35,205 bases of DNA from Candidatus Nomurabacteria bacterium (GTDB taxonomy: Bacteria; Patescibacteriota; Minisyncoccia; Phycocordibacterales; UBA9973): NCBI GenBank assembly GCA_943350065.1, contig CALQZZ010000001.1, positions 1-35,205 on the forward strand. The letters are read 5' to 3'. The notes under the pieces are model-generated. The model was not told the DNA's origin. It did no database searches and was given only the letters and a program-made list of their open reading frames with translations. The translations under genes and the position numbers were made by a program. Of the stretch, positions 7,099 to 34,226 are shown piece by piece. The stretch's first letter is position 1; each line of letters starts with the position of its first letter.

Positions 7099-7194
7099 TT
7101 CCTCCTCCCCTTCGCTAAGGGGAGGAATGAGGAGGGGTGCTGAATTCTACACCCCCACCCAACCTCCCCCTTGGCAAAGGGGGAGGAGAATACC
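7099..7194. repeat. GC-rich nested-palindrome repeat, complete head-to-head pair
   Basis: Hairpins CCTCCCCTT-CGCT-AAGGGGAGG (7104-7125) and CCTCCCCCTT-GGCA-AAGGGGGAGG (7163-7186). The arms are mutually inverted around a central GAATTC (7142-7147). Confidence 0.9.
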
Positions 7195-7503: not shown

Positions 7504-7533
7504 AAAATCCTCTTTCAAGAGGATTTTTGTTTA
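7504..7533 (+). terminator. rpsO terminator
   Basis: AAAATCCTCTT-(TC)-AAGAGGATTTT, then TGTTT. Confidence 0.85.
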
Positions 7534-7634
7534 GGGATTCCCCCCCCTCCTTAATAAGGAGAGGATTGAGGTGAGGTTCTTAATTCAATGCACCTCATCC
7601 CGACCTTCTCCTTGTAAAGGAGAAGGGGAATAAA
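7534..7634. repeat. GC-rich nested-palindrome repeat, complete head-to-head pair (copy 1 of a near-identical pair)
   Basis: CTCCTTAATAAGGAGAGGATTGAGGTGAGGTTCTTAATTCAATGCACCTCATCCCGACCTTCTCCTTGTAAAGGAGAAGGGGAATAAAA. Matches 34106-34192 with only 3 substitutions. Confidence 0.92.
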
Positions 7635-7647
7635 ATTAAAAAAGTAG

Positions 7648-13650: not shown

Positions 13651-13659
13651 CTTTTTATA

Positions 13660-13688
13660 AAAATACACAGGGTTCCCCTGTGTATTTT
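13660..13688. repeat. REP-like hairpin, left copy (13-bp stem, 3-nt loop); also a convergent terminator
   Basis: Perfect stem read directly. Abuts the RAYT stop codon and lies 10 nt after the TrmB-2 stop. Confidence 0.85.
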
Positions 13689-14359
13689 TATAACTCTTTC
13701 TTATAATTTAACCAATCATCAATCATGGCTTTAAAGTAGTTATCTTCTGTTTTGTATTCCTTTTTATATTCCGGAAAAAATTTAGGACTTGTAATTAAAA
13801 AGTCTTTTTTAAGGTGTTCTCCTATACTTGAATATTTATAACTCAAAACAAAATCTTTTAAAGAATTAAAGTCTTTCGGACCGCTTTCTTTCCATTTTTT
13901 ATCTTTTAATTTAGCTGGATTTAAATGTATATAAGAATATAAATATCTCATATACACATCGTCATCTACATATTCTGACTTAAATACTCCCTGAAAAAGA
14001 GCACCACTTCTTTTATTTTTATTATTAAAATACATAGAATAGGCAGTCTGTAGTTTTAACATAAATTTAGAAATACCATCTTTTGTTAATGGGGTAATAA
14101 GTAAATGAAAATGATTTGGCATTAAACAATAAGCTCCGATAGCTACAATTGGATCTTTATTTTTTTCTTGTAAAAGCTCATTAAAGGAATTTCCTTTTAA
14201 TAAGTCTCTGATTTTTAGATTCTGTTTAGTGTTTAAAATATGCATCAACAAAACAAATCTATTGTAATCATAGGTATTAGTAAAAATAATTCTTTTATCT
14301 ACACCACGATTGTAGACATGGTAGTAATGATCTTCAATTAATTTATGTCGTCTTTCCAT
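13688..14359 (-). CDS. IS200-like Y1 (HUH) transposase, RAYT-like (REP-associated tyrosine transposase)
   Basis: YHVYNRG, HUH motif in CLMPNHFHLLITP, catalytic Tyr context YLYSYIHLNPAK. 223 aa. Flanked on both sides by mutually inverted 12-13 bp stem hairpins. Confidence 0.85.
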   Translation of the reverse strand: MERRHKLIEDHYYHVYNRGVDKRIIFTNTYDYNRFVLLMHILNTKQNLKIRDLLKGNSFNELLQEKNKDPIVAIGAYCLMPNHFHLLITPLTKDGISKFMLKLQTAYSMYFNNKNKRSGALFQGVFKSEYVDDDVYMRYLYSYIHLNPAKLKDKKWKESGPKDFNSLKDFVLSYKYSSIGEHLKKDFLITSPKFFPEYKKEYKTEDNYFKAMIDDWLNYKKEL

Positions 14360-14385: not shown

Positions 14386-14412
14386 AAATACACAGGGGAA
14401 CCCTGTGTATTT
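14386..14412. repeat. REP-like hairpin, right copy (inverted relative to the left copy)
   Basis: Perfect 12-bp stem. The loop GAA is the complement of the left loop TTC. Confidence 0.85.
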
Positions 14413-16025: not shown

Positions 16026-16028
16026 ATA

Positions 16029-16066
16029 AAAAAAATCTTTACAAAACTGTAAAGATTTTTTTTATT
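16029..16066. terminator. bidirectional terminator between comM and the M23 peptidase gene
   Basis: AAATCTTTACA-AAAC-TGTAAAGATTT, flanked by A8 and T8 runs. Confidence 0.85.
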
Positions 16067-17189
16067 TTGCCCAAGACCTATCCCAACCTGGATTCCAACC
16101 TCCACGTACTTCAAAGTGTAAATGATTACCGAAAGAGTGGCCCGTATTACCGACATAACCGATGACTTGTCCTTGGTAAACATTATCCCCAATAGAGACA
16201 TTTAATTTTGATTGGTGAGCATAATATGTCTGCATTCCATTTGGATGTTGAATAATGACCAAGTTTCCAAATCCACCATTTTTACCATTTCGAGCAAAGA
16301 TTACTCTTCCAGCTGCGGCTGCATGTATAGGTGTACCAGCCACGTGACAACTAAGGTCCACAGCAGTACCATCATGTCTACCTTGAGTAGTATCACATCC
16401 AGGAAGAGGGTTCACGAAGTATCCTTCACTAGACCTCATTTGAGATTTATTTTTATTTGAAGGCAAACGTCCTCCTTGTTTTACTTTTTTACTAGTAGAA
16501 ATACTACCCTTAACCTCAGCTCCAGGAATCACAAGCTCATCACCTACAGTAATACCATTCTCTCCAATATCGTTAAAAGAGGTAATATCTTCTACTTCTA
16601 CACCATAAAGCTTTGCAATACCTTTCAAGGTTTGACCTTTTGTGACCACATGCACAACTCCAGAAACTGGGGGAATAAGCCAAACATCACCTTCAACCGG
16701 TGTTGCTCCTTTTTTAAGATCATTGGCCCAGACGATAGTATTAGCAGAAATATCAAACATTTTAGCAATATCAGCCACGGTATCTCCTTTTCGAACGACA
16801 TAGACACTGATTTGATCAGCAGAAAGATCAGCTTCATCAGAACTTGTTCCCATAGCACTAGTAGCAGGAAGAAGGGCATTATCTGAGAGAATGTTTACAT
16901 CGGTATCTGCTTTTATAGAGTTTTTATCTTTTGAATCGACGACAGAGATAGCAGAGATATTTGCTTCTAAGGCTGTGTTTTGAGCATTATTACCATTTAA
17001 AATAGAATTATCAGCAGAAACTGGAGACCCCAATACTATATCTGAAAGGAAACTAGCCTTTACGTCAATAGGCGCCAAAACAACCCCAAACACTAAGAAA
17101 AGGGCTAAAATAGGAGAAATAATTTTAAATTGAGTATTATTCATAAGATATAAAGGCTTTTCTAGCATTCGGTCATGTCTTTCGTGCAT
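16062..17189 (-). CDS. secreted LysM-LysM-M23 peptidoglycan endopeptidase
   Basis: Two LysM repeats (YVVRKGDTVADIAKMF..; HVVTKGQTLKGIAKLY..) and an M23 catalytic domain (GRHDGTAVD; GNTGHSFGNHLHFEV). The true start may be the internal ATG at 17144 (MNNTQFKIISPILALFLVF = signal peptide). Confidence 0.9.
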   Translation of the reverse strand: MHERHDRMLEKPLYLMNNTQFKIISPILALFLVFGVVLAPIDVKASFLSDIVLGSPVSADNSILNGNNAQNTALEANISAISVVDSKDKNSIKADTDVNILSDNALLPATSAMGTSSDEADLSADQISVYVVRKGDTVADIAKMFDISANTIVWANDLKKGATPVEGDVWLIPPVSGVVHVVTKGQTLKGIAKLYGVEVEDITSFNDIGENGITVGDELVIPGAEVKGSISTSKKVKQGGRLPSNKNKSQMRSSEGYFVNPLPGCDTTQGRHDGTAVDLSCHVAGTPIHAAAAGRVIFARNGKNGGFGNLVIIQHPNGMQTYYAHQSKLNVSIGDNVYQGQVIGYVGNTGHSFGNHLHFEVRGGWNPGWDRSWAK

Positions 17190-17256
17190 CTAATCTGTAC
17201 TTATTAAGGATAGCTCTTTAGGTGCCTAGAGTCAATGGGGCTGTGCAAAACTATCC

Positions 17257-17285
17257 TTGACAAATCAAGATAAAAGGTATATAAT
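17257..17285 (+). promoter_or_regulatory. consensus sigma70 promoter TTGACA-N17-TATAAT for the 17353-23222 gene set
   Basis: TTGACA 17257-17262, 17-nt spacer, TATAAT 17280-17285. Confidence 0.7.
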
Positions 17286-17352
17286 ATAAAGATATCAGAG
17301 CTCAAAAAATTAGGTATTATTAGTGATAAGTTTTATAATATATTCATATAAA

Positions 17353-18006
17353 ATGCCAAAAGAAAAAATTACAACATCTAATACAGTAGACGCTACCGAA
17401 GTCCAAATAGACCCACTTGAATTACTCAAAGACAAATGGGGTGCTAATAATTCAAATTCCAACAAAAATAAACAAAACAGTCAAAAACTAGCAAAAGTTG
17501 ACAACAGTCTGCCTAAAAAATTAAAATCTAAGATAGAGGAACAGGAAAATCTGAAAACAAAAAGAGATGAGATAGAAACAAGATTTAGCAAATTAAACTA
17601 TCCAAAAAATTTAGCCAGAACACTTTCAATTCAAAAGAAAGAGGCTTTGCTGTTAAAAGTAGAAGAAAACAAAAAAAATCAACAAACAAAAAAAGAAGGT
17701 GCGGAAAAATCAAAAGCTCAAATGAAAGCTTTTGAAGAAAATAAAAAGGCTGGTAAAGTAAGTTCTACTGAAGAAAAAGTAGAAAAATTATCTCGTATAT
17801 TATTCCCAAGACAAGAATTAATAAAACAATTACCAGATGAAGACATTGAAGAATGGAGAAAATACTACCAAGAACAACTGAAAGATGAAAGTTTAAGTGA
17901 CGAGATGAAGGAAAGATATTTAAAAAAACTAAAAACAATCAGAGAGTACAAAGAATTTATCGACGAAGTAGAAGTTGCTAAAAAAATTATTATCAAAAAA
18001 GAATGA
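17353..18006 (+). CDS. hypothetical Lys/Glu-rich coiled-coil-like protein
   Basis: Track ORF starts at GTG 17323; ATG 17353 (MPKEKITTS) preferred. Ends at TGA 18004-18006, which is followed by 39 more in-frame sense codons of the same composition. Confidence 0.6.
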   Translation: MPKEKITTSNTVDATEVQIDPLELLKDKWGANNSNSNKNKQNSQKLAKVDNSLPKKLKSKIEEQENLKTKRDEIETRFSKLNYPKNLARTLSIQKKEALLLKVEENKKNQQTKKEGAEKSKAQMKAFEENKKAGKVSSTEEKVEKLSRILFPRQELIKQLPDEDIEEWRKYYQEQLKDESLSDEMKERYLKKLKTIREYKEFIDEVEVAKKIIIKKE

Positions 18007-18127
18007 GAGGAGGACAAAGAGGAAATATTAGAAATGCTACTTAAAAAAGTCGAGGCTAAAAAAAGAGAGGAGAGGGAGAAAAAAAGAGAAGCTGGTTTAT
18101 TAAAAGATTTAAAACCTAAAAAATAAT

Positions 18128-21100
18128 ATGTCAGAACAACCACCAAAAGTTCGCACAATAGAAGAAATAAATACAGAAATAAAAAATCTGCGTTTAAATC
18201 CTAAAAAACTAAAAATGGATGTTTTGGACCTACAATTACTCGCCTTAGAGAGAGAACTCAAACAAGCTAAGAACTTGGAGCAGAGTAAAGCTAAAAAAGA
18301 AAAAGAATACAAATCTGTAACCAAAAATTACACAATACAAAATTCTAAAGAAAAAGAAACTGAAATTTTACCAGGTCTGATGATCGATGGGGTAGTAATA
18401 GGACCAAACGATAAAATATTAGGCCCAAAAACTTTTAAACAAGGTAATACTTATTTTTCAATACCAGAATCAAAAATAATTTCAAAAAAGAAAAACAAAA
18501 AAGAAAAGAAACAAGTAAATAAAATTGTCATCGAAAAAGAATTGGAAAATCTGACAAAAGGACGAAGTGTTTGGTCTAACGACAGGACAAATGGTGGAAA
18601 ATATATTATAAATGAAACTCCAGAAACAAGTAAAGATAAAAAATATGTCTTTAAAAAAGAAAATGGTAGTGTCTTTAGAATTTCTAGTGATGAATTAAAA
18701 AAATTAGTAAAAAACGAATCAATTCAATTGACTTTAACCGAAGAAGAATATAAATCAAAATCTCCAGCTACAAAAATAGCAACAGTTCCAGCGATTCCAG
18801 CGACACCCAAAGTCGCTACTGCTCCGACTATTGCAACCACTCCAGCCACCCCTGCGACAAAAATAAATAAAATTAAAACTCCAGAAGATGCAAAGAAAGA
18901 ATATCGTGATTTTATAAACAAAGCAGTAAAAGTCATCAAGCAAAGAGGAATAGATAGAATAGTCATTCATGGAGACGAATTTAAATTACAACCCCACCCA
19001 AAAGCAAAAGATATGGGTCAAGAGGAATTAAAAGAATATAGAGAACAAAAAGAAAAAGAATGGCTTGATTCACAATACGAAACCAATGACTTCGACCTAG
19101 ACCTCGAAGGTTCTATGTTGTTTCTCAATAATATGGCTAGTGGAAACAAAAAGATTTTAAACGATAAATTATTTTTAGAAAAAATTTCTAAAGGATCAGA
19201 AGGTTTAAAATATCCACTCCGTAATAAAGAAGTAATACTATATATAGACGTCGGAGGTAAAAATCCTGGAGTAGAGACAGAAGGAGGAGTGACAAAAATT
19301 TATGCTGATCATCATGGTACAGAAGGTGGCTACACCACTTCAGCTACACAAATAGTGCGAGATATAATGACAGCCGGAAAGTTTTCTCTCGGAGACTCTA
19401 AGACAAAAGAATATTTAAATAAAACAGCCAGCTTTATAGCAAAGTTTGATAATTTGGCATATCTTGATGATAAAAAAGATTCGAGAGATCCAAAGAGTGA
19501 GAGACTAGTGGATGAAAAATATTTACGAAATACTTTCCCACGAAGTCTATATTCACTTGCAAAGTTTTTACCATTTGAAACTGTTTTAGAAATTCTCGGC
19601 AAGAATGAGAAATATTTTAAAGACGGAAAACCTCGCGACTGGGCAAATACTTTTACACGCGAAGAAATAGAAAATGGAGAAATTGGAAAAATGGAAGTAG
19701 ATTACCGAGGTAAAAAAATTACTGTCAAAGAATTAGTTGAAAGAAATATTAAAGATTTAAATTATGCAATAAACAACACAAACATAGCACTAAAGTATCA
19801 AGGAAATAATACAGACTCTGTTCTCGGCAAGACCGTATTTCATGCTTTTACAAAAGATACAGATGGTAAATCTAATACTATTCCAAATCACCTGGCTTAT
19901 ATCACTGCTCGTGCATTGGGTAATGATGCTTTTGTTTCTTACAATCCAGAAAGTGGAGCGATATTTATAAACTCAGATGGAAAAGTAGATTTAATGCCTA
20001 TTTGGGAAAAATTGAATGCAATAATTCCTGGCTATCCAAAACCAATTCGTAACCAAATGATGTTTGCTCCAAAAGACCCTGAAATGAAGAAAAAAATGAA
20101 AGATATTTCACAAGAAAAAATTCTTGAGATTTTAGGAATGAAGGAAAATAACACAACAAAAGAAAATCTAGAAAAAAGAAGCTTAGATGAAATAGTCAAA
20201 ACATATCTTTCATACATAGAGACAGCAAAAACCCCTGCTGATTTTAAAAGAATTCACGAAGCAACATACAATAAGGACGGAAGCATGAAAGCAGAAAATA
20301 TAAAATATGGTGAAACTTTAAAAGAAATTTTAAACACAAAAGAAAGTAAAGAATCTCTTGAAAAAGCAAAAGGCTTAATTAGAGAAAACTTTACAAAAGC
20401 AATGATAGCACTTAATTATACTCCTACAATATATGGATTAAATGATACTTGGATATATTGGGATATAGCAAAACAGAAATATTTAACTACTCATAAAAAT
20501 GAATCAAGTAAAAACTACAAACTTGGTGATCCGTTGCAGTTTGAATCTAAAAATATAGATGCTCAAAGAGTCGCACAAGAAATAGCTGATAGACATATCG
20601 GTTGGGAAATTTTTGGTCTTGTTAAGAATATGGCAGTATTACAAAATATTTCTGTAGAAGAAGTTATAAATAGACCAAATACGTTAGTTGATAAAAATGG
20701 ACCTTTCTTTAAAGAAATCTTGGATATTCTAAAAGAATCAATTCCTGCAGACAAAAATCAAAGCTCTTTATTGCCTTCATGGAAATTAGCTAAACTAGGA
20801 GAATACTTAAGAAAAAATAAAGGAGTTGATGGAATATTTGAAAAAGACATAACTGCTGACATAAAAAAAGACATCAATGCAAAAATTGATGACAAGGATA
20901 AAAAGAAGGATGACAAAAAAGAACAACCTAAAGGACCGACGGCTGAACAAATAGCTCAAAGAGAAAGGGAAATGGCCGTAAGACTACAAGCTGTGGCTAC
21001 TGCTCGTGAGACTTTATTCCAAATTAAAAACGAACCGGAAAGTGCATGGAGTAAATTCAAAGGTTGGTTTAATGCTAAGAGTACAGAAAAGCAAACAAAA

Positions 21101-22897
21101 ATAACTAATCAAGAAAAAATTTATCATGATGCCAAAAAAGCATATATAGAAATGCTACCAAAGGGAACACCTGAGGCTAATCTTTTTATTCTTTCTGAAG
21201 TAGAAATTGTCAGAAACCATAAAACAGAAAATCTTCCACTTTCTGAAAAAATTAAAAATGGAATTTCAAAAGGAGTAAAATATTGGGAAGAAATCGGTAC
21301 TAATCCAGAAGACAGTAAGACAAAACAATGGGCTAAAAAAATAGGAAAGAGTTTGATTGCTGTCGCAATTATTGGTGGAGCTTCAGCTGCGGCAGTCAGT
21401 AGTCTGGCTGCGATCGGAGTAGGTACTGCCAGTGCACTTTCTGCTGGAGCAGGTTCATATCTCGGTAGAAAAATGCTAATGACTGTCGGAATGAGTTCTG
21501 TAATGACCATCATGCCACCTGGAGTAAAATCATTCTTATCAATGGCCTTACCAATGATGAGTGTCGCAGGTGGAGCAGGATATCTAGCATCAAAAGGAGC
21601 ACAGTTTGCAATGAACAAATGGTTTGGTTTTAGTGAAGAATCTATAAAATCAAAACTAGATACAGAAATTAATAAGTTAAAAAATCCCGACCTAAATAGT
21701 AATGAATCTTTGGACGACAAAATAAAAAGAATTGAAAAAGAATATGCAACGATAGAAAAATCTGCAAAACAAAAAAGATTTGGTAGAAGATTGATGAGTG
21801 GAGTTGCAGCTCTAGGTACCGGTATTGCTGTTTTGGAATATGGAGGATATAAAATGGACGAACATAATGCCGAACTAGCTCACGCACAACAAATAAAAAA
21901 TGAAGAGCTACAACATTTCAATCCTAATACAAAAGAAGTCGATCCTGCTTTTGCTGGTAGAGAATATCCACAAGGAGAACATGGAATAAATACCAAAGTA
22001 GAATTCAGTTCTCGTGGTGCGATAGCGACACTAGATGATTTGAAAGGAGGGCTGACAAAACAATATCATGGAGATTTTTCTCATGCACCACAAAGTGTGC
22101 AAGATTTTATGCACACCAGCTCTACAGAAGAAGCAATGAAACTCGGAATGTTTCATCCTAATGATCCTACTGGAAATGAAAGCATGATGATTATGCGAGG
22201 CTCTACTATTAGCTTTGATGAGCATGGAAATTTGTCATATCACGACATTCAAAAAAATATTGATCATACATTGATAGAAGGAGATAAAAATGCGATAGAA
22301 CAATATAAAGGAAATATGTTTGATTCAGATCAAAACTCTGAAACTGAAAATCAAACAGAAAATGCCAATTCACCAGAAGAACAAAATTTTCAAAATGAAA
22401 CAGTAGGTGAAAACAATCAAGAAAATAATAATGAAGTCACGACAGACAATCCAAATATGACTTATGACGAAGAAGCAGAAAAAGAAACTCCTATTAATCC
22501 TGAACATTCTGACAACACAAACAATGAAACACAATCAGAAGAAATAACACAAACAGAAGACACTGCACATTTTGGACTCACCGAAGATCAATTAAAAGAT
22601 GTACAGTTAGTCCATAATGAAAATGTTGATAAGTTATTTGACAATGCGAACAATTGGAATGCTGTAAAAGATCAACCAGCAGAAGTTTATGCACACGAAC
22701 AACTTGATGGTGTAAACCCTGAGTACCAAGACTTTGTAAAACATTTACATGAATTATTAGAAAAAAGTGGAATAGAACCTAGACCCGGAACGCTTATTAA
22801 TTCAGCAGAAACAAATGATCAATATATAGAAAGAGCTTTAGAAAAATTAGCCTCCGAAGATAGATTAGAAGAAGTGACATTAACACAACATTATTAA
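18128..22897 (+). CDS. giant (1589 aa) membrane protein with DHH-phosphoesterase-like motifs and low-complexity linkers
   Basis: Single uninterrupted ORF. Lys-rich N-terminus, Pro/Thr/Ala linker (nt 18778-18852), IVIHGDEF / YIDVGG / IYADHHGTEGGYTTSATQIV (DHH at nt 19307-19315). Gly/Ala-rich TM helices at about nt 21340-21610 and 21790-21850. Asn/Glu/Gln-rich acidic tail at about nt 22320-22560. Confidence 0.8.
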   Translation: MSEQPPKVRTIEEINTEIKNLRLNPKKLKMDVLDLQLLALERELKQAKNLEQSKAKKEKEYKSVTKNYTIQNSKEKETEILPGLMIDGVVIGPNDKILGPKTFKQGNTYFSIPESKIISKKKNKKEKKQVNKIVIEKELENLTKGRSVWSNDRTNGGKYIINETPETSKDKKYVFKKENGSVFRISSDELKKLVKNESIQLTLTEEEYKSKSPATKIATVPAIPATPKVATAPTIATTPATPATKINKIKTPEDAKKEYRDFINKAVKVIKQRGIDRIVIHGDEFKLQPHPKAKDMGQEELKEYREQKEKEWLDSQYETNDFDLDLEGSMLFLNNMASGNKKILNDKLFLEKISKGSEGLKYPLRNKEVILYIDVGGKNPGVETEGGVTKIYADHHGTEGGYTTSATQIVRDIMTAGKFSLGDSKTKEYLNKTASFIAKFDNLAYLDDKKDSRDPKSERLVDEKYLRNTFPRSLYSLAKFLPFETVLEILGKNEKYFKDGKPRDWANTFTREEIENGEIGKMEVDYRGKKITVKELVERNIKDLNYAINNTNIALKYQGNNTDSVLGKTVFHAFTKDTDGKSNTIPNHLAYITARALGNDAFVSYNPESGAIFINSDGKVDLMPIWEKLNAIIPGYPKPIRNQMMFAPKDPEMKKKMKDISQEKILEILGMKENNTTKENLEKRSLDEIVKTYLSYIETAKTPADFKRIHEATYNKDGSMKAENIKYGETLKEILNTKESKESLEKAKGLIRENFTKAMIALNYTPTIYGLNDTWIYWDIAKQKYLTTHKNESSKNYKLGDPLQFESKNIDAQRVAQEIADRHIGWEIFGLVKNMAVLQNISVEEVINRPNTLVDKNGPFFKEILDILKESIPADKNQSSLLPSWKLAKLGEYLRKNKGVDGIFEKDITADIKKDINAKIDDKDKKKDDKKEQPKGPTAEQIAQREREMAVRLQAVATARETLFQIKNEPESAWSKFKGWFNAKSTEKQTKITNQEKIYHDAKKAYIEMLPKGTPEANLFILSEVEIVRNHKTENLPLSEKIKNGISKGVKYWEEIGTNPEDSKTKQWAKKIGKSLIAVAIIGGASAAAVSSLAAIGVGTASALSAGAGSYLGRKMLMTVGMSSVMTIMPPGVKSFLSMALPMMSVAGGAGYLASKGAQFAMNKWFGFSEESIKSKLDTEINKLKNPDLNSNESLDDKIKRIEKEYATIEKSAKQKRFGRRLMSGVAALGTGIAVLEYGGYKMDEHNAELAHAQQIKNEELQHFNPNTKEVDPAFAGREYPQGEHGINTKVEFSSRGAIATLDDLKGGLTKQYHGDFSHAPQSVQDFMHTSSTEEAMKLGMFHPNDPTGNESMMIMRGSTISFDEHGNLSYHDIQKNIDHTLIEGDKNAIEQYKGNMFDSDQNSETENQTENANSPEEQNFQNETVGENNQENNNEVTTDNPNMTYDEEAEKETPINPEHSDNTNNETQSEEITQTEDTAHFGLTEDQLKDVQLVHNENVDKLFDNANNWNAVKDQPAEVYAHEQLDGVNPEYQDFVKHLHELLEKSGIEPRPGTLINSAETNDQYIERALEKLASEDRLEEVTLTQHY

Positions 22898-22916
22898 TTA
22901 ATAAAATAAAAATAAA

Positions 22917-23222
22917 ATGGCAACAATAAAACAAACCTTAATCGAATTATTTGAACTAGATAAAATGTCTCCTGAGAAGGCGACAGAGACAGCCGAGAGA
23001 TTGGCAAAATTAGTCATGCAAGCAGTTTTGACTCGTGTCTTACCAATGCTTTCAGAAGAAAATTTACAAAAATATGAAGACATTATAGATACAAACCAAA
23101 GCCCTGAAATTTTATTTGATTTTCTAAATTCCAAAGTAGTAAATTTTCAAGAAATTTTAACTGAAGAGACAGAAAGTCTGCACCGAGAGCTCTCTGGAGA
23201 AATGGAATCTTTGATTAGTTAA
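22917..23222 (+). CDS. hypothetical small helical acidic protein (101 aa)
   Basis: ORF track entry. Starts 19 nt after the giant ORF, so probably co-transcribed. Terminator follows. Confidence 0.6.
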   Translation: MATIKQTLIELFELDKMSPEKATETAERLAKLVMQAVLTRVLPMLSEENLQKYEDIIDTNQSPEILFDFLNSKVVNFQEILTEETESLHRELSGEMESLIS

Positions 23223-23240
23223 TAAATAAAAACCATTTAT

Positions 23241-23279
23241 AAAAAACATTTTGAAGTAAAATTCAGAATGTTTTTTATT
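23241..23279 (+). terminator. terminator after 22917..23222
   Basis: AAAAACATTTTGAA-GTAAAA-TTCAGAATGTTTTT, then TATTTT. Confidence 0.75.
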
Positions 23280-23282
23280 TTG

Positions 23283-23291
23283 TGCTATATT
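23283..23291 (+). promoter_or_regulatory. extended -10 TGcTATATT, 6 nt before the second ATG of uvrD (leaderless)
   Basis: TGCTATATT-aaaatg-ATG. Confidence 0.5.
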
Positions 23292-23297
23292 AAAATG

Positions 23298-25322
23298 ATG
23301 GAACATTTGAAAGGACTCAATGATGCTCAAAAAGAAGCGGCTCTGCACACTAGTGGGCCGTTGTTAATCGTCGCTGGTGCTGGAGCAGGGAAGACTAAGA
23401 CTATCACTCATAGGATTGTTAATCTAATAAAACAAGGTGTTTCACCAGAAAAAATCTTAGCGGTAACATTCACAAACAAATCTGCCAAAGAAATGCGTGA
23501 ACGTATCATAAATGAAATAGAAAAAAATGCAAAAGGACAAAATACCGTGCCTTTTGTGAGCACTTTTCATTCACTTGGAGTTCATATCATCAAAGAAAAT
23601 TCTAGGTTAATCGGTGTCACTAGACATTTCACTATTCTCGACGAGAGTGATTCACTTTCGATAATCAAAGAATCTCTGAAAGAAAACGATTTAGACCCAA
23701 AACAATATGAGCCAAAGAAAATAAAAGGTATGATCAGTCGAGAAAAAGGAAAGTTTACCAAGATGGAAGACTATTTTGAAAGTGCGACTGACTATTTACC
23801 TCGAGTCGTCGCTCGTGTCTGGAAAAGCTATGAGACAAAAAAAGCCAAAGAAAATGCCCTAGACTTTGATGACTTACTTTTAAAGGCCACAACCTTATTG
23901 AAAGAAAATTTAGAAGTACGAAAAATGTATCAAGACCGTTGGAGTCACATACATATCGATGAGTACCAGGACACCAATGAAGCTCAATATATAATGAGTA
24001 AGTTACTTTCTGAAAAGCATAAAAATATTTGTGTCGTCGGAGATGCTGACCAAAATATTTATTCTTGGCGTGGAGCAAATTTAAAAAACATCTTATCTTT
24101 TGAAAAAGATTATCCAGATGCAAAAATTGTATTACTGGAAGAAAATTATCGTTCTACAAAAAATATTTTGGAGGCTGCGAATACTATTATCAAAAAAAAT
24201 AAATATCGTCCTGATAAAAATTTATTCACCTCAAATGAAATTGGTGAAAAAATTTCATTACATGAAGCCCTAGAAGAAACAGAGGAGGCGGATTTCATTG
24301 CAACAAAAATTTTAGAGATTGTAGATAGTTCCGATAGTAATAAAATTTTTGATCCTGCGCCCTTCTTTGGGCGCAATTCTGGGGACAAAGTGGGACCCTC
24401 GGATACAAAAATTTCATCACTATCTCCACATTTTTCTGACGTAGCAATTCTTTACCGTGCAAATTTTCAATCTCGCGTACTAGAAGAAGCAATGCTTCGT
24501 TATAATATTCCATATCAAGTTCTAGGAATAAAATTTTTTGAAAGAAAAGAAATTAAAGACACTCTTTCATATTTACGAGCAGCACTGAATCCAGAAAGTT
24601 TATCTGACATAAAAAGAATTATAAACTTCCCTGCACGTGGAATAGGGAAGGTAACTCTCACAAAAATATTTGCAAAGGATACAACAGAGCTACCAATAAA
24701 AATGCAAATAAAAATAAAAAACTTTTATGAATTATTGGAAGAAATAAAAGAAAATATTTCACACAATACAGCTTCAGAAGTTATAAAATTTGTAATTAAA
24801 AAAACAGGCATAGAAGAAGAATTAAAAAATGGCGGTGAAGAAGAAATGGAAAGATTGGCAAACATCAAAGAACTAGCGACACTCGCACTAAAATACGACA
24901 ATTTGGAAAATGGTCTTGGTGTCGAAAAACTTATCGAGGATGCATCCCTCGCTTCCGACCAAGATTCAATAATGATTACAGATGAAAAACCTGAAAAAAT
25001 AAATGGTATTAAGATGATGACTGTTCATGCTTCAAAAGGACTAGAGTTTAAATATGTTTTTGTCACAGGATTAGAAGAAGGACTTTTTCCAAACCAAAGA
25101 GCCGGTGAGAGTAAATCAGCAGAAGATAGTGAAGAAGAACGTAGACTTTTCTATGTAGCCATCACTCGTGCTCGTGAAAAATTATTTTTATCATTTGCAA
25201 ACTTCCGAACAATCTTTGGTTCAAGGCAAATAAATTCACCGTCGCAATTCATTTCTGATATTCCTAGAGATATAATAGAAAGGAGTGATGAGAATCCAAA
25301 TGTAAAAACAATTTATATATAA
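23298..25322 (+). CDS. uvrD: ATP-dependent DNA helicase UvrD/PcrA (SF1)
   Basis: LNDAQKEAA, Walker A AGAGAGKT, TFTNKSAKEM, DEYQDTN, VGDADQNIYSWRGA, ENYRST, VHASKGLEF, RRLFYVAITRA. Track start is 23268; I prefer the second ATG of ATGATG (23298), which lies 6 nt after TGcTATATT. Confidence 0.92.
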   Translation: MEHLKGLNDAQKEAALHTSGPLLIVAGAGAGKTKTITHRIVNLIKQGVSPEKILAVTFTNKSAKEMRERIINEIEKNAKGQNTVPFVSTFHSLGVHIIKENSRLIGVTRHFTILDESDSLSIIKESLKENDLDPKQYEPKKIKGMISREKGKFTKMEDYFESATDYLPRVVARVWKSYETKKAKENALDFDDLLLKATTLLKENLEVRKMYQDRWSHIHIDEYQDTNEAQYIMSKLLSEKHKNICVVGDADQNIYSWRGANLKNILSFEKDYPDAKIVLLEENYRSTKNILEAANTIIKKNKYRPDKNLFTSNEIGEKISLHEALEETEEADFIATKILEIVDSSDSNKIFDPAPFFGRNSGDKVGPSDTKISSLSPHFSDVAILYRANFQSRVLEEAMLRYNIPYQVLGIKFFERKEIKDTLSYLRAALNPESLSDIKRIINFPARGIGKVTLTKIFAKDTTELPIKMQIKIKNFYELLEEIKENISHNTASEVIKFVIKKTGIEEELKNGGEEEMERLANIKELATLALKYDNLENGLGVEKLIEDASLASDQDSIMITDEKPEKINGIKMMTVHASKGLEFKYVFVTGLEEGLFPNQRAGESKSAEDSEEERRLFYVAITRAREKLFLSFANFRTIFGSRQINSPSQFISDIPRDIIERSDENPNVKTIYI

Positions 25323-25324
25323 CA

Positions 25325-25358
25325 CTCACCACTCTCTGCTATCGCTAGGAGTGGTGAG
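25325..25358 (+). other. 10-bp perfect hairpin without a U-tract between uvrD and rsmA
   Basis: CTCACCACTC-N14-GAGTGGTGAG. Followed by TAAAATTT and then the rsmA ATG. Confidence 0.6.
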
Positions 25359-25366
25359 TAAAATTT

Positions 25367-26281
25367 ATGAAAATACATAAAGCAAAAAAATCATTAGGTC
25401 AAAACTTTTTAAAATCAGTACCAGCGCTGAACGCTATTGTGAATGCCGGAGAAATAAAAGATACTGATACTATTTTAGAGATTGGTCCCGGTAAAGGAGC
25501 ACTGACTGAAAAACTTTTAGCCAAAATTAGTACAGATAAATCTGGGATAGGTAAGGTTATTGCTATAGAAAAAGATCAAGACCTATTAGAATTTCTAAAA
25601 GAAAAATTTGCAAAAGAAATTGAAGATAAAAAATTCATTTTAATAAATGAAGATATTTTAGAGCACCCCCTCCCGACCTCCCCCTTGGCGAAGGGGGAGG
25701 GGAAATACAAGATTATCGCTAACATTCCATACAATATCACCGGAGCGATTTTGAAAAAATTTTTAACAGCCGAAAATCAACCAGAGAGAATGGTCTTAAT
25801 GGTACAAAATGAAGTAGCAAAAAGAATTGTCGCTCGAGATGGCAGCGAGAGTATTTTATCTATCTCAGTCAAAGCTTATGGAAATCCAAAAATAATAATG
25901 AAGGTTCCCGCTAGATATTTTTCACCAGCACCTAAGGTGGATTCTGCTATTATTGCAATTACAGATATAAATAGAGATAACTTTATTTCAAAACCCCCTC
26001 GTCCTACGGACACCCCCTCTTATCAAGAGGAGAATGTTGGAATCGCTAGGCAAGACCTAGCGAAACTTACATTCGAAGAAAGATTTTGGACTTTAGTTAA
26101 AAATGGTTTTGCACACAAAAGAAAGATACTAATTAGCAACTTAAGAACCTCACCCCAGCCCTCTCCTTTTAAAGGAGAGGGAGTAATACTTAAAATATTC
26201 GAGAACTTACATATTTCAGAAAAAGCTCGAGCGGAAGAATTAGATCTAAAAGACTGGTTGGAAATTGCTAAAAAATTATAA
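25367..26281 (+). CDS. rsmA: 16S rRNA (adenine1518/1519-N6) dimethyltransferase RsmA/KsgA, carrying three repeat-derived in-frame insertions
   Basis: LGQNFL, SAM-binding LEIGPGKGALTEKL, IANIPYNITG, PKVDSAII, AHKRK. 304 aa versus about 270 aa typical. The extra residues coincide with GC-rich palindromic repeat copies. Confidence 0.92.
   Translation: MKIHKAKKSLGQNFLKSVPALNAIVNAGEIKDTDTILEIGPGKGALTEKLLAKISTDKSGIGKVIAIEKDQDLLEFLKEKFAKEIEDKKFILINEDILEHPLPTSPLAKGEGKYKIIANIPYNITGAILKKFLTAENQPERMVLMVQNEVAKRIVARDGSESILSISVKAYGNPKIIMKVPARYFSPAPKVDSAIIAITDINRDNFISKPPRPTDTPSYQEENVGIARQDLAKLTFEERFWTLVKNGFAHKRKILISNLRTSPQPSPFKGEGVILKIFENLHISEKARAEELDLKDWLEIAKKL
25664..25704. repeat. repeat unit inside rsmA, site 1 (in frame)
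   Basis: CACCCCCTCCCGACCTCCCCCTTGGCGAAGGGGGAGGGGAAA versus intergenic 7150-7190 CACCCCCACCCAACCTCCCCCTTGGCAAAGGGGGAGGAGAA. Encodes HPLPTSPLAKGEG. Confidence 0.88.
25993..26063. repeat. repeat-like GC-rich double hairpin inside rsmA, site 2 (in frame)
   Basis: CCCCCTCGTCCTACGGACACCCCCTCTTATCAAGAGGAG (hairpin CCTCTT-ATCA-AGAGG) plus a perfect 8-bp hairpin TCGCTAGG-CAAGA-CCTAGCGA (26043-26063). Encodes KPPRPTDTPSYQEENVGIARQDLAK. Confidence 0.7.
26147..26186. repeat. repeat unit inside rsmA, site 3 (in frame)
   Basis: ACCTCACCCCAGCCCTCTCCTTTTAAAGGAGAGGGAGTAA versus intergenic ACCTCATCCCAGCCTTCTCCTTGTAAAGGAGAAGGGGAAT (34153-34192). Encodes TSPQPSPFKGEGV. Confidence 0.88.
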
Positions 26282-26286
26282 CTTTA

Positions 26287-30620: not shown

Positions 30621-33600
30621 ATGAAAAAAAATATTCTAAAAAGCTTAATAATTGTTTTAATTTTAGCTATTTTTATAGTACCGAGTTTTACTAAACATAA
30701 AATTGTTTTTGCAGCTGCTCCAATCATAACAACCGAAAATGCAACCAATGTCACGGCAAATAGCGCTACTATTAGTAGTAACATTTTAAACACTGATGGA
30801 GTTGAGACTAATATTAGTTTTATTTATAGTGAAGAACCTACTGCCACTGGTGGTCATGGTTCAGGAATGGGAACAGCAGATCCACAAGCACCTATCGCCC
30901 CTCCAACTTATATAGTATCAAAAGATTTAACAAATTTAGAACCATACACTACTTATTATTATAGATTTTTAGCTTTCAGTCCTCATGGGGGAAATCCTGG
31001 AACAATTAAAAGTTTTACAACCCTCAAAGGGGAACCTGTTGCTAGTACAGATGTTGCTACACCTAATTTAATCACTACAAATTCTGCAAGACTTAATGGA
31101 AGTATTCTCAACACTTCAGGAGAAATTCCTGACAGTGTTTCTTATGAACTAGGATACGATCCTCAGACGATAATAGATTATAATCATGGCTATGGCTACT
31201 CATCAAACCCCGTAGTTCTCTTAACTGGACATTATAATGGAACTAGTAGCAATGGTTTTATTGCCCCTCCTATTTACACAACCTATGCAGACACGACTGG
31301 TTTAACACCAAATACTATATACTATTTTAGATCATGTGTAACAATAGTCTTAACAATAAATTTCTCAATAAGTGGACATACTGGTTGTGGTGGTTTTAGT
31401 AAATTTATTACAGACACATCAACTGACCCAAATAGTGGTCATAATATCGGTGCCCCAGGAGGAATAGGAAACAATGGAAGTAATAATGGTAATGGATGGA
31501 ACACAGGTGGAGCCATCGGTACAAATACTAGTTCAAATATAAAAAATGTTAAGACATATAATGCCACAGACTTAACAGAAAATTCTACCAAGTTTAATGG
31601 TTCAGGAGATATTTTAAACAGTGAAAATCATTTTGCTTATTTTAGATATTCTAAAATTACCGACCATCCACCAATTTTCTGTAATGATATTTATGGTTCA
31701 GCAATGATGACTGCGACAGCCACAAATCCTAATGTAAATGGTTCTTTTTCTGGTGGTAATTTTTCAGCTGGAGTAAACGGGCTTGAACCTAATACTAGGT
31801 ATTATTATTGTGCTGTTGTCTCAAACAGTGCTCTTTCAAACAACCCTAGTGATCCTACTTATTTCCGACCAAGAAAATCAGATATTCAATATGGAGGTGT
31901 AAAATTTTTTGATACAAAATGTGGAAACACTTGTACAACAATAGTGACAAAACCAGCGACTGGAATAACTCCTACATCTGTTATTTTAAATGGTTCTTAT
32001 AATTCCACAAAAGATGTAAAAACATATTTAGAATACAAAATAGACCCTGTTATATATGTCTCACACGGTGGAACTGTTCCAGATCCGTATTTCCCAGATC
32101 ATTGGATAAAAGTAAACATTTTAGACCATAATACAAATACTGGTACTGTTTCTGGAAATATTCAAGGCTCAGTGACAGGTTTGTTACCAAATACCCCGTA
32201 TTTGTTCGAAGCTGTTGCTGAAACAAATTGGGGAACGACAACTACTCCAAATATACAAACATACACTGGAGATCTTATGAATTTCACTACTCGTCCACCA
32301 ACTTCAACTCCTAGTACCCCTACAGATCCAGGGACGACACAATATCAACCATCTACTGATTATAATTCTGATTATCAATACACCATCTGTCCAGATTTAA
32401 CAATATATAATATCTCAAGCAAAACTGTTCGTGCAGGAAATAATCTTTCTTTCGCTGCAAATTCTTGTGGATCAAATGGGGAGACCGTCACTTATACTCC
32501 TACAAATTTACCTACTGGATCAAACTTGAATACAAATGGTATTTTTACTTGGCCAGTACCAGCCAATCAAGCTGTCGGGTCTTATGATGTGATAATAAAC
32601 GCAAGTACTCCTAGCCAGAGTGCAGTACCTGTGACAGTACACATCAATGTAATAGCTTCAAATACTACTACAACTACAAGCTGTAATGATTTAACAATTA
32701 GCGAAATACCAGATCAACATTATACTGTGGGTCAACCTGGTAGCTTCTGGGCTAATGTTTGCGGAGATAGAGGAGTAACTGTCACTTATTCTAACGTTAA
32801 TTTACCAATAGGAGCTAGTATGACTGCTTCATCTGGATATTTTGTTTGGTTCCCAACAGAAGATCAAATAGGAGATACTGATTTATTAATCACAGCCACG
32901 ACAGGTAGCCAAACAGCAGCACCTATCACTGTACATGTCACTGTCTCTGCTGCTAACAATGGACCGACAGGTAACACTACTGTTACCCATACCACAATAA
33001 ACCCTTGTCCGGTTTTTAAATTAAATTCTATTTCAAACAAAACTGTTACAGTGGGAAGTTCTATTTCTTTTACAGCACATACTTGTGGAAATCAATCAAA
33101 GTCTGTAAATTATTTTATTACATCTGACTTAATGCCGACTGGTGCCACTATTGATCCGGCAACTGGTATATTTTCTTGGCATACAACTTCGAATCAATCT
33201 GGTACATACACAATCAAAGTACATGCTAGCGCAAATATTGGTAGTACAGATTTAATTACAGGAACCCAATCAGCAATAGAAGCCTCACCAGTCACTGTAA
33301 ACATTAAAGTAAATCCTAAACCAAAAAATTGTCCTACTTTAAAAATAAATCCGATTCAAAATGATTCTGCTTTTATAAATCAACCAGAAACTTTTTATGT
33401 AACTACTTGTGGAGAAGGGAATGCAGTAGTCGCTTTCTCTTCAACCAATTTACCAACAGGAGCTAGTATTGATCCACAAACTGGTTATTTTTCTTGGATT
33501 CCAACAGCAGCCCAAATTGGTTTACATAATATAATAATTTCAGCCAGTATTCCAAATAACCGAGCTGTTACAGATACTGTAGCTATTAACGTAAAAGATA

Positions 33601-34097
33601 TGAGTATCTTTACCTCTTCTAGCTCAGGTGGTACTTCTTTTGGAAATAGTAACTCAGGAAATGGAACTTTTGGAAATAGTGGTAATAGTAATAGTCCGAC
33701 AGTTCTAGGATCTCTAAATAATCCTGCTCCAGCCTTGGGTTCAGCATTAGTTCCTCCATATAGTGACGTCGTAAGATATCACGAAGGAATAGAGCACGTC
33801 TTTACTAGACAAATAGTAGGGGATATATCTCTCGCAAGAATTTATGGATATCAAGATGGACAAAATTTACAAATTTTTGCCGGAAACCTAGCCCACTCAT
33901 TTGCTACAATGTTTGGATATTATCATGGTGGGGGAAGAGAAATACGAGTCATTACTCCAGACATCGCAGCCTATCAGCTCGGACTCAAAGATGGAATGCT
34001 AGCTGTTTATGAATATTATGACAATCACTTGACCGGTGTCGCTACTGCCACAGGAAGCTTGAAAGAAACTTTTGAATACGAATATTATTTTCATTAA
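30621..34097 (+). CDS. surface adhesin-like protein: signal peptide, 4 Fn3-like modules, 4 Cys-paired Ig-like (He_PIG-type) repeats, C-terminal Tyr-rich domain
   Basis: Fn3-like modules end in TYYYRF / TIYYFRS / TRYYYCA / TPYLFEA. The four Ig-like repeats each carry C...C and NLPTGA(S/T).D..TG.FSW.P...Q.G. Pro/Thr and Gly/Ser/Asn linkers. Confidence 0.85.
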   Translation: MKKNILKSLIIVLILAIFIVPSFTKHKIVFAAAPIITTENATNVTANSATISSNILNTDGVETNISFIYSEEPTATGGHGSGMGTADPQAPIAPPTYIVSKDLTNLEPYTTYYYRFLAFSPHGGNPGTIKSFTTLKGEPVASTDVATPNLITTNSARLNGSILNTSGEIPDSVSYELGYDPQTIIDYNHGYGYSSNPVVLLTGHYNGTSSNGFIAPPIYTTYADTTGLTPNTIYYFRSCVTIVLTINFSISGHTGCGGFSKFITDTSTDPNSGHNIGAPGGIGNNGSNNGNGWNTGGAIGTNTSSNIKNVKTYNATDLTENSTKFNGSGDILNSENHFAYFRYSKITDHPPIFCNDIYGSAMMTATATNPNVNGSFSGGNFSAGVNGLEPNTRYYYCAVVSNSALSNNPSDPTYFRPRKSDIQYGGVKFFDTKCGNTCTTIVTKPATGITPTSVILNGSYNSTKDVKTYLEYKIDPVIYVSHGGTVPDPYFPDHWIKVNILDHNTNTGTVSGNIQGSVTGLLPNTPYLFEAVAETNWGTTTTPNIQTYTGDLMNFTTRPPTSTPSTPTDPGTTQYQPSTDYNSDYQYTICPDLTIYNISSKTVRAGNNLSFAANSCGSNGETVTYTPTNLPTGSNLNTNGIFTWPVPANQAVGSYDVIINASTPSQSAVPVTVHINVIASNTTTTTSCNDLTISEIPDQHYTVGQPGSFWANVCGDRGVTVTYSNVNLPIGASMTASSGYFVWFPTEDQIGDTDLLITATTGSQTAAPITVHVTVSAANNGPTGNTTVTHTTINPCPVFKLNSISNKTVTVGSSISFTAHTCGNQSKSVNYFITSDLMPTGATIDPATGIFSWHTTSNQSGTYTIKVHASANIGSTDLITGTQSAIEASPVTVNIKVNPKPKNCPTLKINPIQNDSAFINQPETFYVTTCGEGNAVVAFSSTNLPTGASIDPQTGYFSWIPTAAQIGLHNIIISASIPNNRAVTDTVAINVKDMSIFTSSSSGGTSFGNSNSGNGTFGNSGNSNSPTVLGSLNNPAPALGSALVPPYSDVVRYHEGIEHVFTRQIVGDISLARIYGYQDGQNLQIFAGNLAHSFATMFGYYHGGGREIRVITPDIAAYQLGLKDGMLAVYEYYDNHLTGVATATGSLKETFEYEYYFH
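32388..33600 (+). repeat. four tandem Ig-like (He_PIG-type) coding repeats of about 100 aa, each opening with Cys
   Basis: Repeat starts at TGT codons 32388, 32682, 33006 and 33330 (all in frame with 30621). Divergent at nucleotide level, conserved at motif level. Confidence 0.8.
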
Positions 34098-34192
34098 TTT
34101 CTTCCTCTCCTTAATAAGGAGAGGATTGAGGTGAGGTTCTTAATTCAATACACCTCATCCCAGCCTTCTCCTTGTAAAGGAGAAGGGGAATA
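34098..34192. repeat. GC-rich nested-palindrome repeat, copy 2 of the near-identical pair
   Basis: Same about 87 nt as 7546-7632, differing at G/A (caatGcacc vs caatAcacc) and CG/AG (cccGAcc vs cccAGcc). Starts right after the stop of the 1158-aa ORF. Confidence 0.92.
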
Positions 34193-34226
34193 AAATACAA
34201 AAAAATAGATATATCTAAAATAAACA

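Follow-up and report, generated by a model that had tools for sequence, protein, structure and literature searches.

We examined a window of 35,205 nt from a Candidatus Nomurabacteria bacterium (contig CALQZZ010000001.1 of GenBank assembly GCA_943350065.1), the whole of which was analyzed, and in it the rRNA methyltransferase gene rsmA (ksgA), which occupies positions 25367 to 26281 of the forward strand as an uninterrupted open reading frame (ORF) of 915 nt and 304 aa. The window has a G+C content of 33.9%, and three of its few G+C islands, which we call sites 1, 2, and 3, lie within rsmA. We consider it likely that these islands are copies of short, selfish palindromic repeats that were copied into the gene with the frame kept and are probably translated as flexible loops rich in Pro, Ser, Gly, Lys, and Glu.

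The rsmA gene is intact and under purifying selection. Its product matched the Pfam family RrnaAD (PF00398) at 1.6e-49 (168.8 bits, against a cutoff of 24) and the curated ksgA model TIGR00755 at 207.5 bits (cutoff, 171). The motifs EIGPGKGALT (the S-adenosylmethionine-binding GxGxLT) and ANIPYNIT (the catalytic (N)IPY) were invariant columns in an alignment of the 120 best RsmA orthologs. The ratio of nonsynonymous to synonymous substitution rates (dN/dS), taken against a syntenic Nomurabacteria metagenome-assembled genome (MAG) from Lac Pavin (L001), was 0.23 for the gene as a whole and 0.12 within the N-terminal domain. The original prediction, made from the letters of the window, had called rsmA clearly intact and had described three in-frame insertions that made the protein about 30 aa longer than typical KsgA. 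The gene is as described, the three sites are real, the reading frame is preserved at each of them, and their translations had been given correctly. However, the protein is in fact ~40 aa longer than its insert-free close orthologs (257 to 266 aa), a fourth insert of 21 nt (site 0) had been overlooked, and sites 1 and 3 are partly replacements, each taking the place of ~6 to 7 native linker residues with a net gain of ~7 aa. All four inserts are free of stop codons.

Site 1 (25664 to 25705, forward strand) is a canonical 42-nt unit consisting of a C-rich arm (CACCCCCTCCCGA), the hairpin CCTCCCCCTT.GGCG.AAGGGGGAGG, and the tail GGAAA, and it translates as HPLPTSPLAKGEGK. Site 3 (26147 to 26185, forward strand), a 39-nt unit that folds at −17.3 kcal/mol (z score, −3.5), has the arm CCTCACCCCAG and the hairpin CCCTCTCCTT.TTA.AAGGAGAGGG and translates as TSPQPSPFKGEGV. 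Site 2 (25986 to 26070) folds as three hairpins (−26.1 kcal/mol; z score, −4.5). Within it, site 2a (25989 to 26033, forward strand), a unit of a "PPRPxxTPxY" subfamily, combines the mini-hairpin GTCC.TAC.GGAC with the pyrimidine-stem hairpin CCCCTCTT.ATC.AAGAGGAG, and site 2b (26038 to 26066, forward strand) is a hairpin of the repetitive extragenic palindrome (REP) type, TCGCTAGG.CAAGA.CCTAGCGA, read as IARQDLAK. Site 0 (25535 to 25555, forward strand) is an AT-rich, in-frame insert (..STDKSGI..) with the weak hairpin CAGAT.AA.ATCTG; it is absent from L001.

At the nucleotide level, sites 1 and 3 remained significantly similar to intergenic copies when judged against shuffled queries. Site 1 (25664 to 25704) was identical to positions 7150 to 7190 at 37 of 41 bases, the match that had been predicted, and the best of 200 shuffled queries reached 25 of 41 window-wide. 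For site 3 a counterpart had been proposed at 34153 to 34192. The direct copy at 34151 to 34191 does agree at ~85% as judged by eye, but the best match was the reverse complement of 34097 to 34143 (40 of 47 bases; shuffled-query maximum, 28); the reverse complement of 7530 to 7583 was 81% identical over 54 nt. One stem difference between site 3 and 34151 to 34191 is compensatory (CCCTCTCC/GGAGAGGG versus CCTTCTCC/GGAGAAGG), and the hairpin has thus been kept. Site 2, described beforehand as a related double hairpin, folds significantly but into three hairpins, and it had no above-chance match within the window (23 of 45 and 21 of 36 bases, which is the chance level); its repeat nature is therefore known solely through other genomes. 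Site 2a aligned with site 2 of the rsmA gene in locus L058 and with an unrelated 477-aa ORF in L009, giving the consensus CACCCCCTCG-YCCT-NNN-GGRC-AC-YCCYCCTT-loop-AAGRGG. A pattern search for site 2a in the fetched loci gave no match, the kinship being recovered through the alignment with L058 and L009. Site 2a represents a second subfamily whose arm contains a mini-hairpin, and site 2 is a composite of one unit of this subfamily and a REP-type hairpin, distinct from the intergenic repeat.

The unit of the main family measures ~42 nt. A C-rich arm of 13 nt (CACCCCCTCCCAA) is followed by a hairpin of 10 bp, whose 5′ stem is made of pyrimidines and whose 3′ stem is made of purines, and then by the tail RGAA. 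Its canonical form, derived from 34 distinct copies, is CACCCCC(T/A)CCC(A/G)(A/G)-CCTCCCCCTT-NNNN-AAGGGGGAGG-RGAA, which, counted from its CAC through its final A, comes to 42 nt (14 codons). We found seven stem variants (for example, CCTCCCCCTT, CCTTCTCCTT, CCCTCTCCTT, TCCTCCCCTT, and TTTCCCCCTT), in which C/T changes on one side are paired with G/A changes on the other. Because every variant is perfectly complementary to its own 3′ arm, we regard the hairpin as the conserved feature. Hairpins were counted with a purpose-written census and a Markov-shuffle null, used instead of a covariance model because MAFFT set members with 3-nt and 4-nt loops out of register. The census counted 10 hairpins of this pyrimidine/purine-stem kind in the window, where 0.34 would be expected according to the shuffles, and 3 of these 10 fell within the 915 nt of rsmA (Poisson P = 0.002). 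No Rfam family matched any part of the window at gathering thresholds. Intragenic terminators were ruled out as an explanation of the hairpins, since there was no terminator-like site between 25200 and 26400. A GC island in the adjacent helicase gene (24354 to 24398), considered as a further insert, was not counted; it is conserved without an indel relative to L001 and L002.

In intergenic DNA the units stand as inverted doublets of ~100 nt, and in genes mostly as single half-units. The doublet from the source family of site 1 (7098 to 7192) lies between a xerC-like gene and rpsO, and its two units form one long hairpin (−59 kcal/mol; z score, −4.7). That from the source family of site 3 (7535 to 7633) lies downstream of the rpsO terminator (−50.7 kcal/mol; z score, −5.5), and a third (34095 to 34193) begins at the stop codon of the ORF at 30621 to 34097 (−45.5 kcal/mol; z score, −5.6). 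A 107-nt repeat that spans the second doublet (7537 to 7643) was 92% identical to 34097 to 34203. The second gene hit in the window is a double-hairpin unit at 14958 to 15018 on the forward strand (−22.6 kcal/mol; z score, −6.4), which forms a linker in a ChlI/ComM-like ORF (14448 to 16025). Another intergenic hairpin, at 6063 to 6099 (ACCCCTCCCCATTTT.CTGCAAA.AAAATGGGGAGGGGT), has C-rich and G-rich arms as in the doublets and a different core. We also noted that the stems of all pyrimidine-stem units, for example at 7544 to 7564, 7604 to 7626, and 34103 to 34186, resemble anti-Shine-Dalgarno and Shine-Dalgarno sequences (CCTCC and GGAGG; CCCCTCCTTA is similar to the 3′ tail of 16S rRNA).

To place the inserts in the protein, we used an AlphaFold model of RsmA built from the 120-sequence ortholog alignment. 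The model had a mean predicted local distance difference test score (pLDDT) of 85.3 and a predicted template-modeling score of 0.84; it shows the two-domain KsgA fold with a confidently modeled core and matched KsgA structures at E values of ~1e-22 and template-modeling scores of 0.73 to 0.87. The first ten residues aside, its low-confidence blocks were residues 51 to 60 (block-mean pLDDT, 78), 101 to 110 (55, the block of site 1), 211 to 230 (44 to 50, the range of site 2a), and 261 to 270 (64). All of them are coil according to DSSP, and they coincide exactly with the four inserts. The model thus agrees with the loop locations proposed earlier from the known KsgA fold, and it predicts that the inserts sit where the fold tolerates them.

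The closest RsmA matches were named Candidatus Nomurabacteria and Paceibacteria. Across the 120 orthologs, lengths ranged from 253 to 328 aa, with 43 orthologs at 266 aa or less. Site 0 measured 5 aa in 108 of the 120 and site 1 measured 8 aa in the insert-free group; site 2 was 5 to 6 aa long in 63 orthologs and 9 to 38 aa long in the others, and site 3 had modal lengths of 22 and 17 aa. About half of the close orthologs carried no insert, and insert-free states were seen at every site, as expected of lineage-specific indels. A few insert peptide families recurred and shifted between sites. The SPLAKGE/DPLLISPLAGGEK family occurred at sites 1, 2, and 3; the TSPQPSP(Y/F)KGEG family, which stands at site 3 in the window, occupied site 2 in at least eight orthologs; the (I/V)ARQDL family, at site 2 in the window, occurred at sites 1 and 3 in orthologs; and the PPRPSGTPP family, to which site 2a belongs, was found at site 2, in 5 of the 120. 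The original prediction had found three hits in one gene striking. The enrichment is real, but it reflects the recurrent use of permissive loops across the whole RsmA ortholog family. Homologous residues at the same positions in distant bacteria would have spoken against insertion; the ortholog comparison, with one kind of unit at different sites, came out in its favor. In Bacillus subtilis KsgA the residues at sites 1 and 3 were unrelated but of similar length, and only site 2 was a length gain relative to this protein.

The content of these loops differs even between close relatives. L001 has ~94 to 95% DNA identity to the window over positions 14889 to 25985, and the helicase next to rsmA is 99.7% identical at the protein level. 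Yet the unit at site 1 is the only insert common to the two rsmA genes; they differ by 21 nt at site 0 and by 39 + 36 nt at site 2, and site 3 differs as well. Site 2a is absent from L001. The site 2b hairpin is likewise missing at site 2 of L001, which has a one-mismatch copy of it at site 3 (IARQDLTI), where the window has its 39-nt unit. The site 1 unit was not found in L002 or L058; the DNA of L002 (P0009) carries a site-1-type unit, CACCCCATCCCAACCTCCCCCTTAGCAAAGGGGGAGGGGAAT, at site 2 instead. In the ChlI/ComM-like gene one linker differs, the double hairpin at 14958 to 15018 replacing an unrelated AT-rich stretch of L001, and over the 289 residues that L001 offers for comparison the protein is 97.6% identical. 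Behind the ORF at 30621 to 34097, identity between the window and L001 extends as far as TTCATTAATT, beyond which the two carry different doublets. With one exception, genic differences of at least 6 nt between the two were multiples of three. The exception is the replacement at site 3, which is broken up in the nucleotide alignment, leaving a 25-nt gap, and which amounts to a net gain of 7 codons. These sharp-edged replacements suggest either that existing hairpins are targeted or that hairpins are exchanged by recombination or gene conversion. L001 also differs from the window in an ORF of 1,589 aa (18128 to 22897), where the window has ~650 nt extra at 20152 to 20850; the extra blocks (288, 183, and 177 nt) are multiples of three, AT-rich, and not hairpin-like.

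We then looked for the hairpin outside rsmA. A scan for the exact hairpin core, with one genome per GTDB species, identified 54 stretches, 12 of them in a sister MAG; many others were in Nomurabacteria, Minisyncoccia, Paceibacteria, and Saccharibacteria, with some in an Anaerolineae MAG and a few in Proteobacteria. In loci from the candidate phyla radiation (CPR), the unit sits within long ORFs of unrelated kinds, which we take, from their flanking motifs, to encode LepA, LeuRS, ArgRS, RNase HI, Tgt, a XerC-like recombinase, and a helicase. Within a single genome, the copies carried by unrelated genes differed at 0 to 3 bases. We counted 90 unique hairpins in 344 kb of related loci, and 56 of the 90 were inside stop-free stretches of at least 150 codons. 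An independent 225-kb sample of CPR-like DNA yielded only 7 weak examples; the main repeat family is lineage restricted. A phage vector for the repeat lacked evidence, the exact core being absent from the IMG/VR viral contigs. We rejected uptake signal sequences by reasoning: the repeats are indels of a 42-nt sequence in unrelated genes and not motifs that arise in place by point mutation.

Several further observations concern these copies. Outside the CPR, the hairpin core, often with a CACCCCCTCC arm, occurred at 10 loci of the Anaerolineae MAG and in several beta- and gammaproteobacterial MAGs (L004, L006, L012 to L014, L018, L024, L043, and L053 to L055), and across genomes the unit was more conserved than its host proteins. 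In the sister MAG (L041, JAPLXQ010000010), whole inverted doublets lie in frame (SFPPSLRGKMKGGVESEHPTPTLPLAKG..) at 1441 to 1525 and 3908 to 3992, in stop-free stretches of 740 and 946 codons, and the first half of the doublet recurs at 7945 to 7968, in a 288-codon stretch at the end of the locus. In L032 a full doublet lies in frame inside a Tgt-like ORF.

The recurrence of the inserts at matching loops in many orthologs, in a gene under purifying selection, would also be expected if they were functional extensions of RsmA selected by the host, for example for contacts with CPR-specific features of the ribosome. The KsgA C-terminal domain and interdomain linker lie near the rRNA-binding surface, a location that also favors such a role. 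However, the same peptides recur in unrelated LepA-, LeuRS-, ArgRS-, RNase HI-, and Tgt-like ORFs and in intergenic DNA, about half of the close orthologs do without them, their content differs between 95%-identical genomes, and they are predicted to be disordered. We therefore regard host-selected function as very unlikely and continue to favor selfish repeats.

Genic copies of the unit show a strong reading-frame bias. Among 22 canonical genic copies, 20 were in one orientation and frame (HPLPTSPLAKGE), reading H-P-(L/H/Y)-P-(T/A)-S-P-L-A-K-G-E, even though inspection of the sequence shows at least four of the six possible frames of the unit to be open (binomial test against one third, ~3e-8). 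The same bias was evident in the 120 RsmA orthologs, where the H-P-..-A-K-G-E-type frame was found in 27 and the other two frames in none, and where the REP-type hairpin was read as RQDL in 13 and never as RSCL, the opposite reading. The behavior is as had been predicted by analogy with the palindromic elements of Rickettsia, in that the unit occurs in frame in unrelated ORFs; it is read overwhelmingly in one frame and is present in intergenic DNA too.

The frame bias also bears on whether the hairpins might be transcribed and left untranslated, through translational bypassing like that of the byp elements of Magnusiomyces mitochondria or through removal from the mRNA. Insertions that are removed from the RNA do occur in CPR rRNA genes. 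GC-rich hairpin inserts in an AT-rich genome are, moreover, exactly the context for which bypassing is described (PMC8811140, citing Lang et al. 2014). Against this, every insert is stop-free and in frame, and 20 of 22 canonical copies use a single frame when at least four are open; so strong a bias is not expected of skipped elements, because these need not keep the frame. We judge bypassing or RNA removal to be highly improbable, and translation of the inserts remains our preferred reading. An origin of the inserts as assembly or binning artifacts can be all but dismissed. The window does come from a metagenome assembly, in which repeats can cause misjoins and chimeras, but the site 1 insert is identical in amino acid sequence in the independent MAG L001, the L002 insert was found again in a separate Logan assembly (L003), dozens of independent assemblies have in-frame copies, and misjoins would not keep frame and gene order.

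A more substantial alternative dispenses with transposition and has the repeats spread by homologous recombination between strains and ectopic gene conversion, the hot-spot loops being old cassettes that are polymorphic and reshuffled among alleles. Wherever the window and L001 differ, the difference is a replacement with sharp edges, set in flanks that are otherwise 95 to 99% identical, and identity along the locus is a mosaic, 95% and then 72%. Site 0 points in the same direction: it shares the 14-nt core CAGATAAATCTGGG with the rsmA gene of P0005 (L140), a non-sister ortholog, and the insert is missing from the closest relatives of both; the 21-nt insert is common to two non-sister lineages. 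Nor is any mobilizing enzyme linked to the main family. Nevertheless, near-identical 42-nt units in many unrelated genes that have no flanking homology need a copying step beyond what allelic recombination can provide by itself, and shuffling accounts for the turnover at hot spots but not for the origin of new sites. On balance we think it unlikely that recombination by itself explains the repeats, and we retain the view that they are copied in as selfish elements.

A candidate enzyme for part of this copying is encoded in the window. On the reverse strand at 13688 to 14359 lies a gene for a Y1 (HUH) transposase of 223 aa that resembles the REP-associated tyrosine transposases (RAYTs) and could act in trans on REP-type hairpins. 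It matched Pfam Y1_Tnp (PF01797) at 3.6e-10 (40.4 bits; cutoff, 23), and the motifs HFHLLI and YSYIHLNP are visible in its sequence. Its score against the NCBIfam model for REP-associated tyrosine transposases (NF047646) was 43 bits, below the cutoff of 80, and a sequence search with it recovered no relative of solved structure. The gene is flanked on its 3′ side by the hairpin ATACACAGGG.TTC.CCCTGTGTAT (13655 to 13693; loop TTC(C)) and on its 5′ side by a second hairpin of this type (14386 to 14412), a layout like that of a REPtron. The hairpin type that flanks the transposase thus has two copies in the 35-kb window, and the site 2b type has one; the flanking hairpin was not found in any fetched related locus. 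Together with a gene for a TrmB-like helix-turn-helix protein (12889 to 13650), the transposase gene sits in a ~2-kb segment that is absent from a syntenic contig.

A metagenome scan recovered at least 592 relatives of the transposase, with very varied flanking hairpins. In 33 of the 69 relatives that could be tested, one identical perfect hairpin stood on both sides of the gene. The 5′ stem ended in AGG(N) in 94 of 136 hairpins flanking RAYT-like genes, and some of these hairpins had a GTAG tag (L061 and L107). Several flanking hairpins, CGCTAGG.CAAGA/TCTTG.CCTAGCG, were that of site 2b: the site corresponds to CCGCTAGG.TCTTG/CAAGA.CCTAGCGG in L108 and L132 and to CTTGCTAGG.CAAGA in L094, all flanking RAYT-like genes. 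Since site 2b is of the type found around these genes, we assign it to the REP-type hairpins of a RAYT-like system.

Several observations weigh against the view of the inserts as mobile, translated hairpins. Site 0 is an unconvincing palindrome whose fold has no significance (z score, −0.5), and the hairpin of site 1 gains little stability over shuffled sequences with the same C/G-rich composition (z score, −1.7). Sites 2a and 2b are each single copy in the window. KsgA proteins of other phyla likewise show variable lengths at these loops, and translation of the inserts is deduced from conservation of the frame. No clean pair of filled and empty sites was found among the comparisons made; the native linker was replaced each time, which blurs the insertion boundaries and any target-site features. 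As regards a mobilizing enzyme, the pyrimidine-stem main family flanked none of the 80 RAYT-like genes examined, and a tblastn search of the window and 59 loci (L001 to L059, ~340 kb) detected no RAYT-like gene other than that of the window itself.

We propose that the unit would be copied in trans, on single-stranded DNA, by a hairpin-recognizing and probably HUH-type enzyme; for the REP-type hairpin of site 2b, the RAYT-like Y1 transposase would be the best candidate. Selection would then remove insertions whose phase, orientation, or location yields a stop codon or a disruptive peptide, and the copies remaining would be those with benign, hydrophilic, Pro/Gly-rich readings of the HPLPTSPLAKGE type in permissive loops. 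Such selective survival would make the loops recurrent hot spots with a fast turnover of content. Neither terminal repeats nor target duplications were visible at the unit borders, which are blurred by replacement. A wider scheme can be put forward only tentatively. In CPR bacteria of the Nomurabacteria and Paceibacteria type, hairpin repeats might be mainly intragenic and translated, with one REP-type family tied to a widespread, undescribed RAYT-like clade and the other having no known mobilizer, and both might home to and replace existing hairpins in permissive loops. Were this so, hairpin repeats would be a main source of protein length differences between 95%-identical strains and would offer a nearly intergenic-free genome a route to house selfish DNA.

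The closest known parallel is with the Rickettsia palindromic elements (RPEs; Ogata et al. 2000), which measured ~150 bp as first described (PMC10969869). In both cases a repeated palindrome in a reduced, AT-rich genome has intergenic and genic copies, the latter lying in frame in housekeeping genes of unrelated kinds, where a fixed frame yields a conserved peptide at a location compatible with the protein fold (here by prediction). The likeness is one of behavior, and there are differences: the unit here has 39 to 42 nt (~100 nt as a doublet) as opposed to ~150 bp, it is strongly GC rich with a pyrimidine/purine-stem hairpin, its genic copies are mostly half-elements, and its host is a free-living or epibiotic CPR bacterium and not an alphaproteobacterial endosymbiont. 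Its size and its host place the main family outside the RPE families.

REPs within genes have been cataloged in other phyla, many of them in genes for replication and repair (Di Nocera et al. 2013; PMC3733652), and RPE-4 and RPE-6 of Rickettsia are REPs of two tagged (GTAG/CGTC) superfamilies (PMC3733652). Like REPs and their REPIN doublets, the repeats described here are hairpins of 20 to 40 nt, occur as inverted doublets that form long hairpins, and have some copies within ORFs, where they encode 20 to 30 aa; the REP-RAYT arrangement is matched by the Y1/HUH gene with flanking hairpins in the window and in 33 of 69 relatives, and by the flanking type of site 2b. The main family nevertheless departs from REP/RAYT systems in three respects, namely tag, flanking transposase, and extragenic location. 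Its unit starts with CACCCCC and ends with GGAGGRGAA, with no GTAG or CGTC tag (the hallmark used in PMC3733652); no pyrimidine-stem hairpin flanks the 80 RAYT-like loci, and the window transposase itself scores below the NCBI cutoff for RAYTs; and most copies are genic (56 of 90) where REPs are mainly extragenic. The repeats also differ from miniature inverted-repeat transposable elements of the DDE type, which are marked by terminal inverted repeats and a target-site duplication: only one side of a single unit bears an arm, which makes the unit asymmetric, and no duplication is seen at the borders of either doublets or single units, a weak test given how blurred these borders are.

Mitochondria offer further comparisons. 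In yeast, GC clusters inserted in frame give rise to var1 polymorphism (PMC8811140). They too are GC-rich, palindromic, and mobile in a very AT-rich genome, are mostly intergenic with optional in-frame inserts, give strain-specific protein lengths, and are recombination hot spots, which parallels the elements here. They are, however, organellar, have terminal AG/TAG repeats taken as target-site duplications, of which we saw none, and in Saccharomyces cerevisiae are described as translated in-frame inserts in var1 only, as opposed to many genes here. The byps of Magnusiomyces capitatus mitochondria (Lang et al. 2014, as cited in PMC8811140) are similar to our repeats as well. Both are short, GC-rich hairpin inserts in protein-coding genes of an AT-rich genome. 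Byps reportedly need not preserve the frame, may contain stop codons, and are skipped by the ribosome. The elements here differ in being stop-free, in frame, and biased to a single frame, and so are most likely translated. Double-hairpin elements are present in Allomyces. Sponge mitochondria carry repetitive hairpin-forming elements (PMC2800124). Both are small hairpin or double-hairpin repeats invading compact genomes, as are ours, but they are organellar, and systematic translation in a single frame across many housekeeping proteins is not known for them.

The behavior described here is thus already known from Rickettsia and some REP elements, and we found no report of it for the present phylum; literature searches for palindromic in-frame inserts, RAYT, or REPIN in CPR, Patescibacteria, or Parcubacteria found no paper that makes this link. 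The genomes of CPR bacteria are tiny and densely packed with genes, and unexplained lineage-specific insertions are frequent in the encoded proteins. The rsmA locus suggests that at least part of this variation is selfish hairpin DNA read as loops, which annotation and homology modeling of CPR proteins should expect. Because their content differs between 95%-identical genomes, the inserts could serve for strain typing, and they bear on the tolerance of mobile DNA by streamlined genomes. The single-frame bias amounts to a natural experiment on which random peptides are tolerated in protein loops, and the RAYT-like family, with its varied flanking hairpins, would be tractable for studying hairpin-specific single-strand DNA transposition outside the Proteobacteria.

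Some features of the region downstream of rsmA are recorded here. From position 26282 on, directly 3′ of the gene, nucleotide identity between the window and L001 falls from ~95% to ~72%, which suggests a recombination boundary or fast-evolving genes. This region contains large ORFs, most of whose L001 counterparts have no Pfam match, one of them matching He_PIG. The ORF at 30621 to 34097 contains direct repeats (32388 to 33546) of 84 to 100 nt with ~71% identity at a spacing of ~620 to 650 nt; they look like tandem domain duplications, and it is the L001 counterpart of this ORF that has the He_PIG domain.

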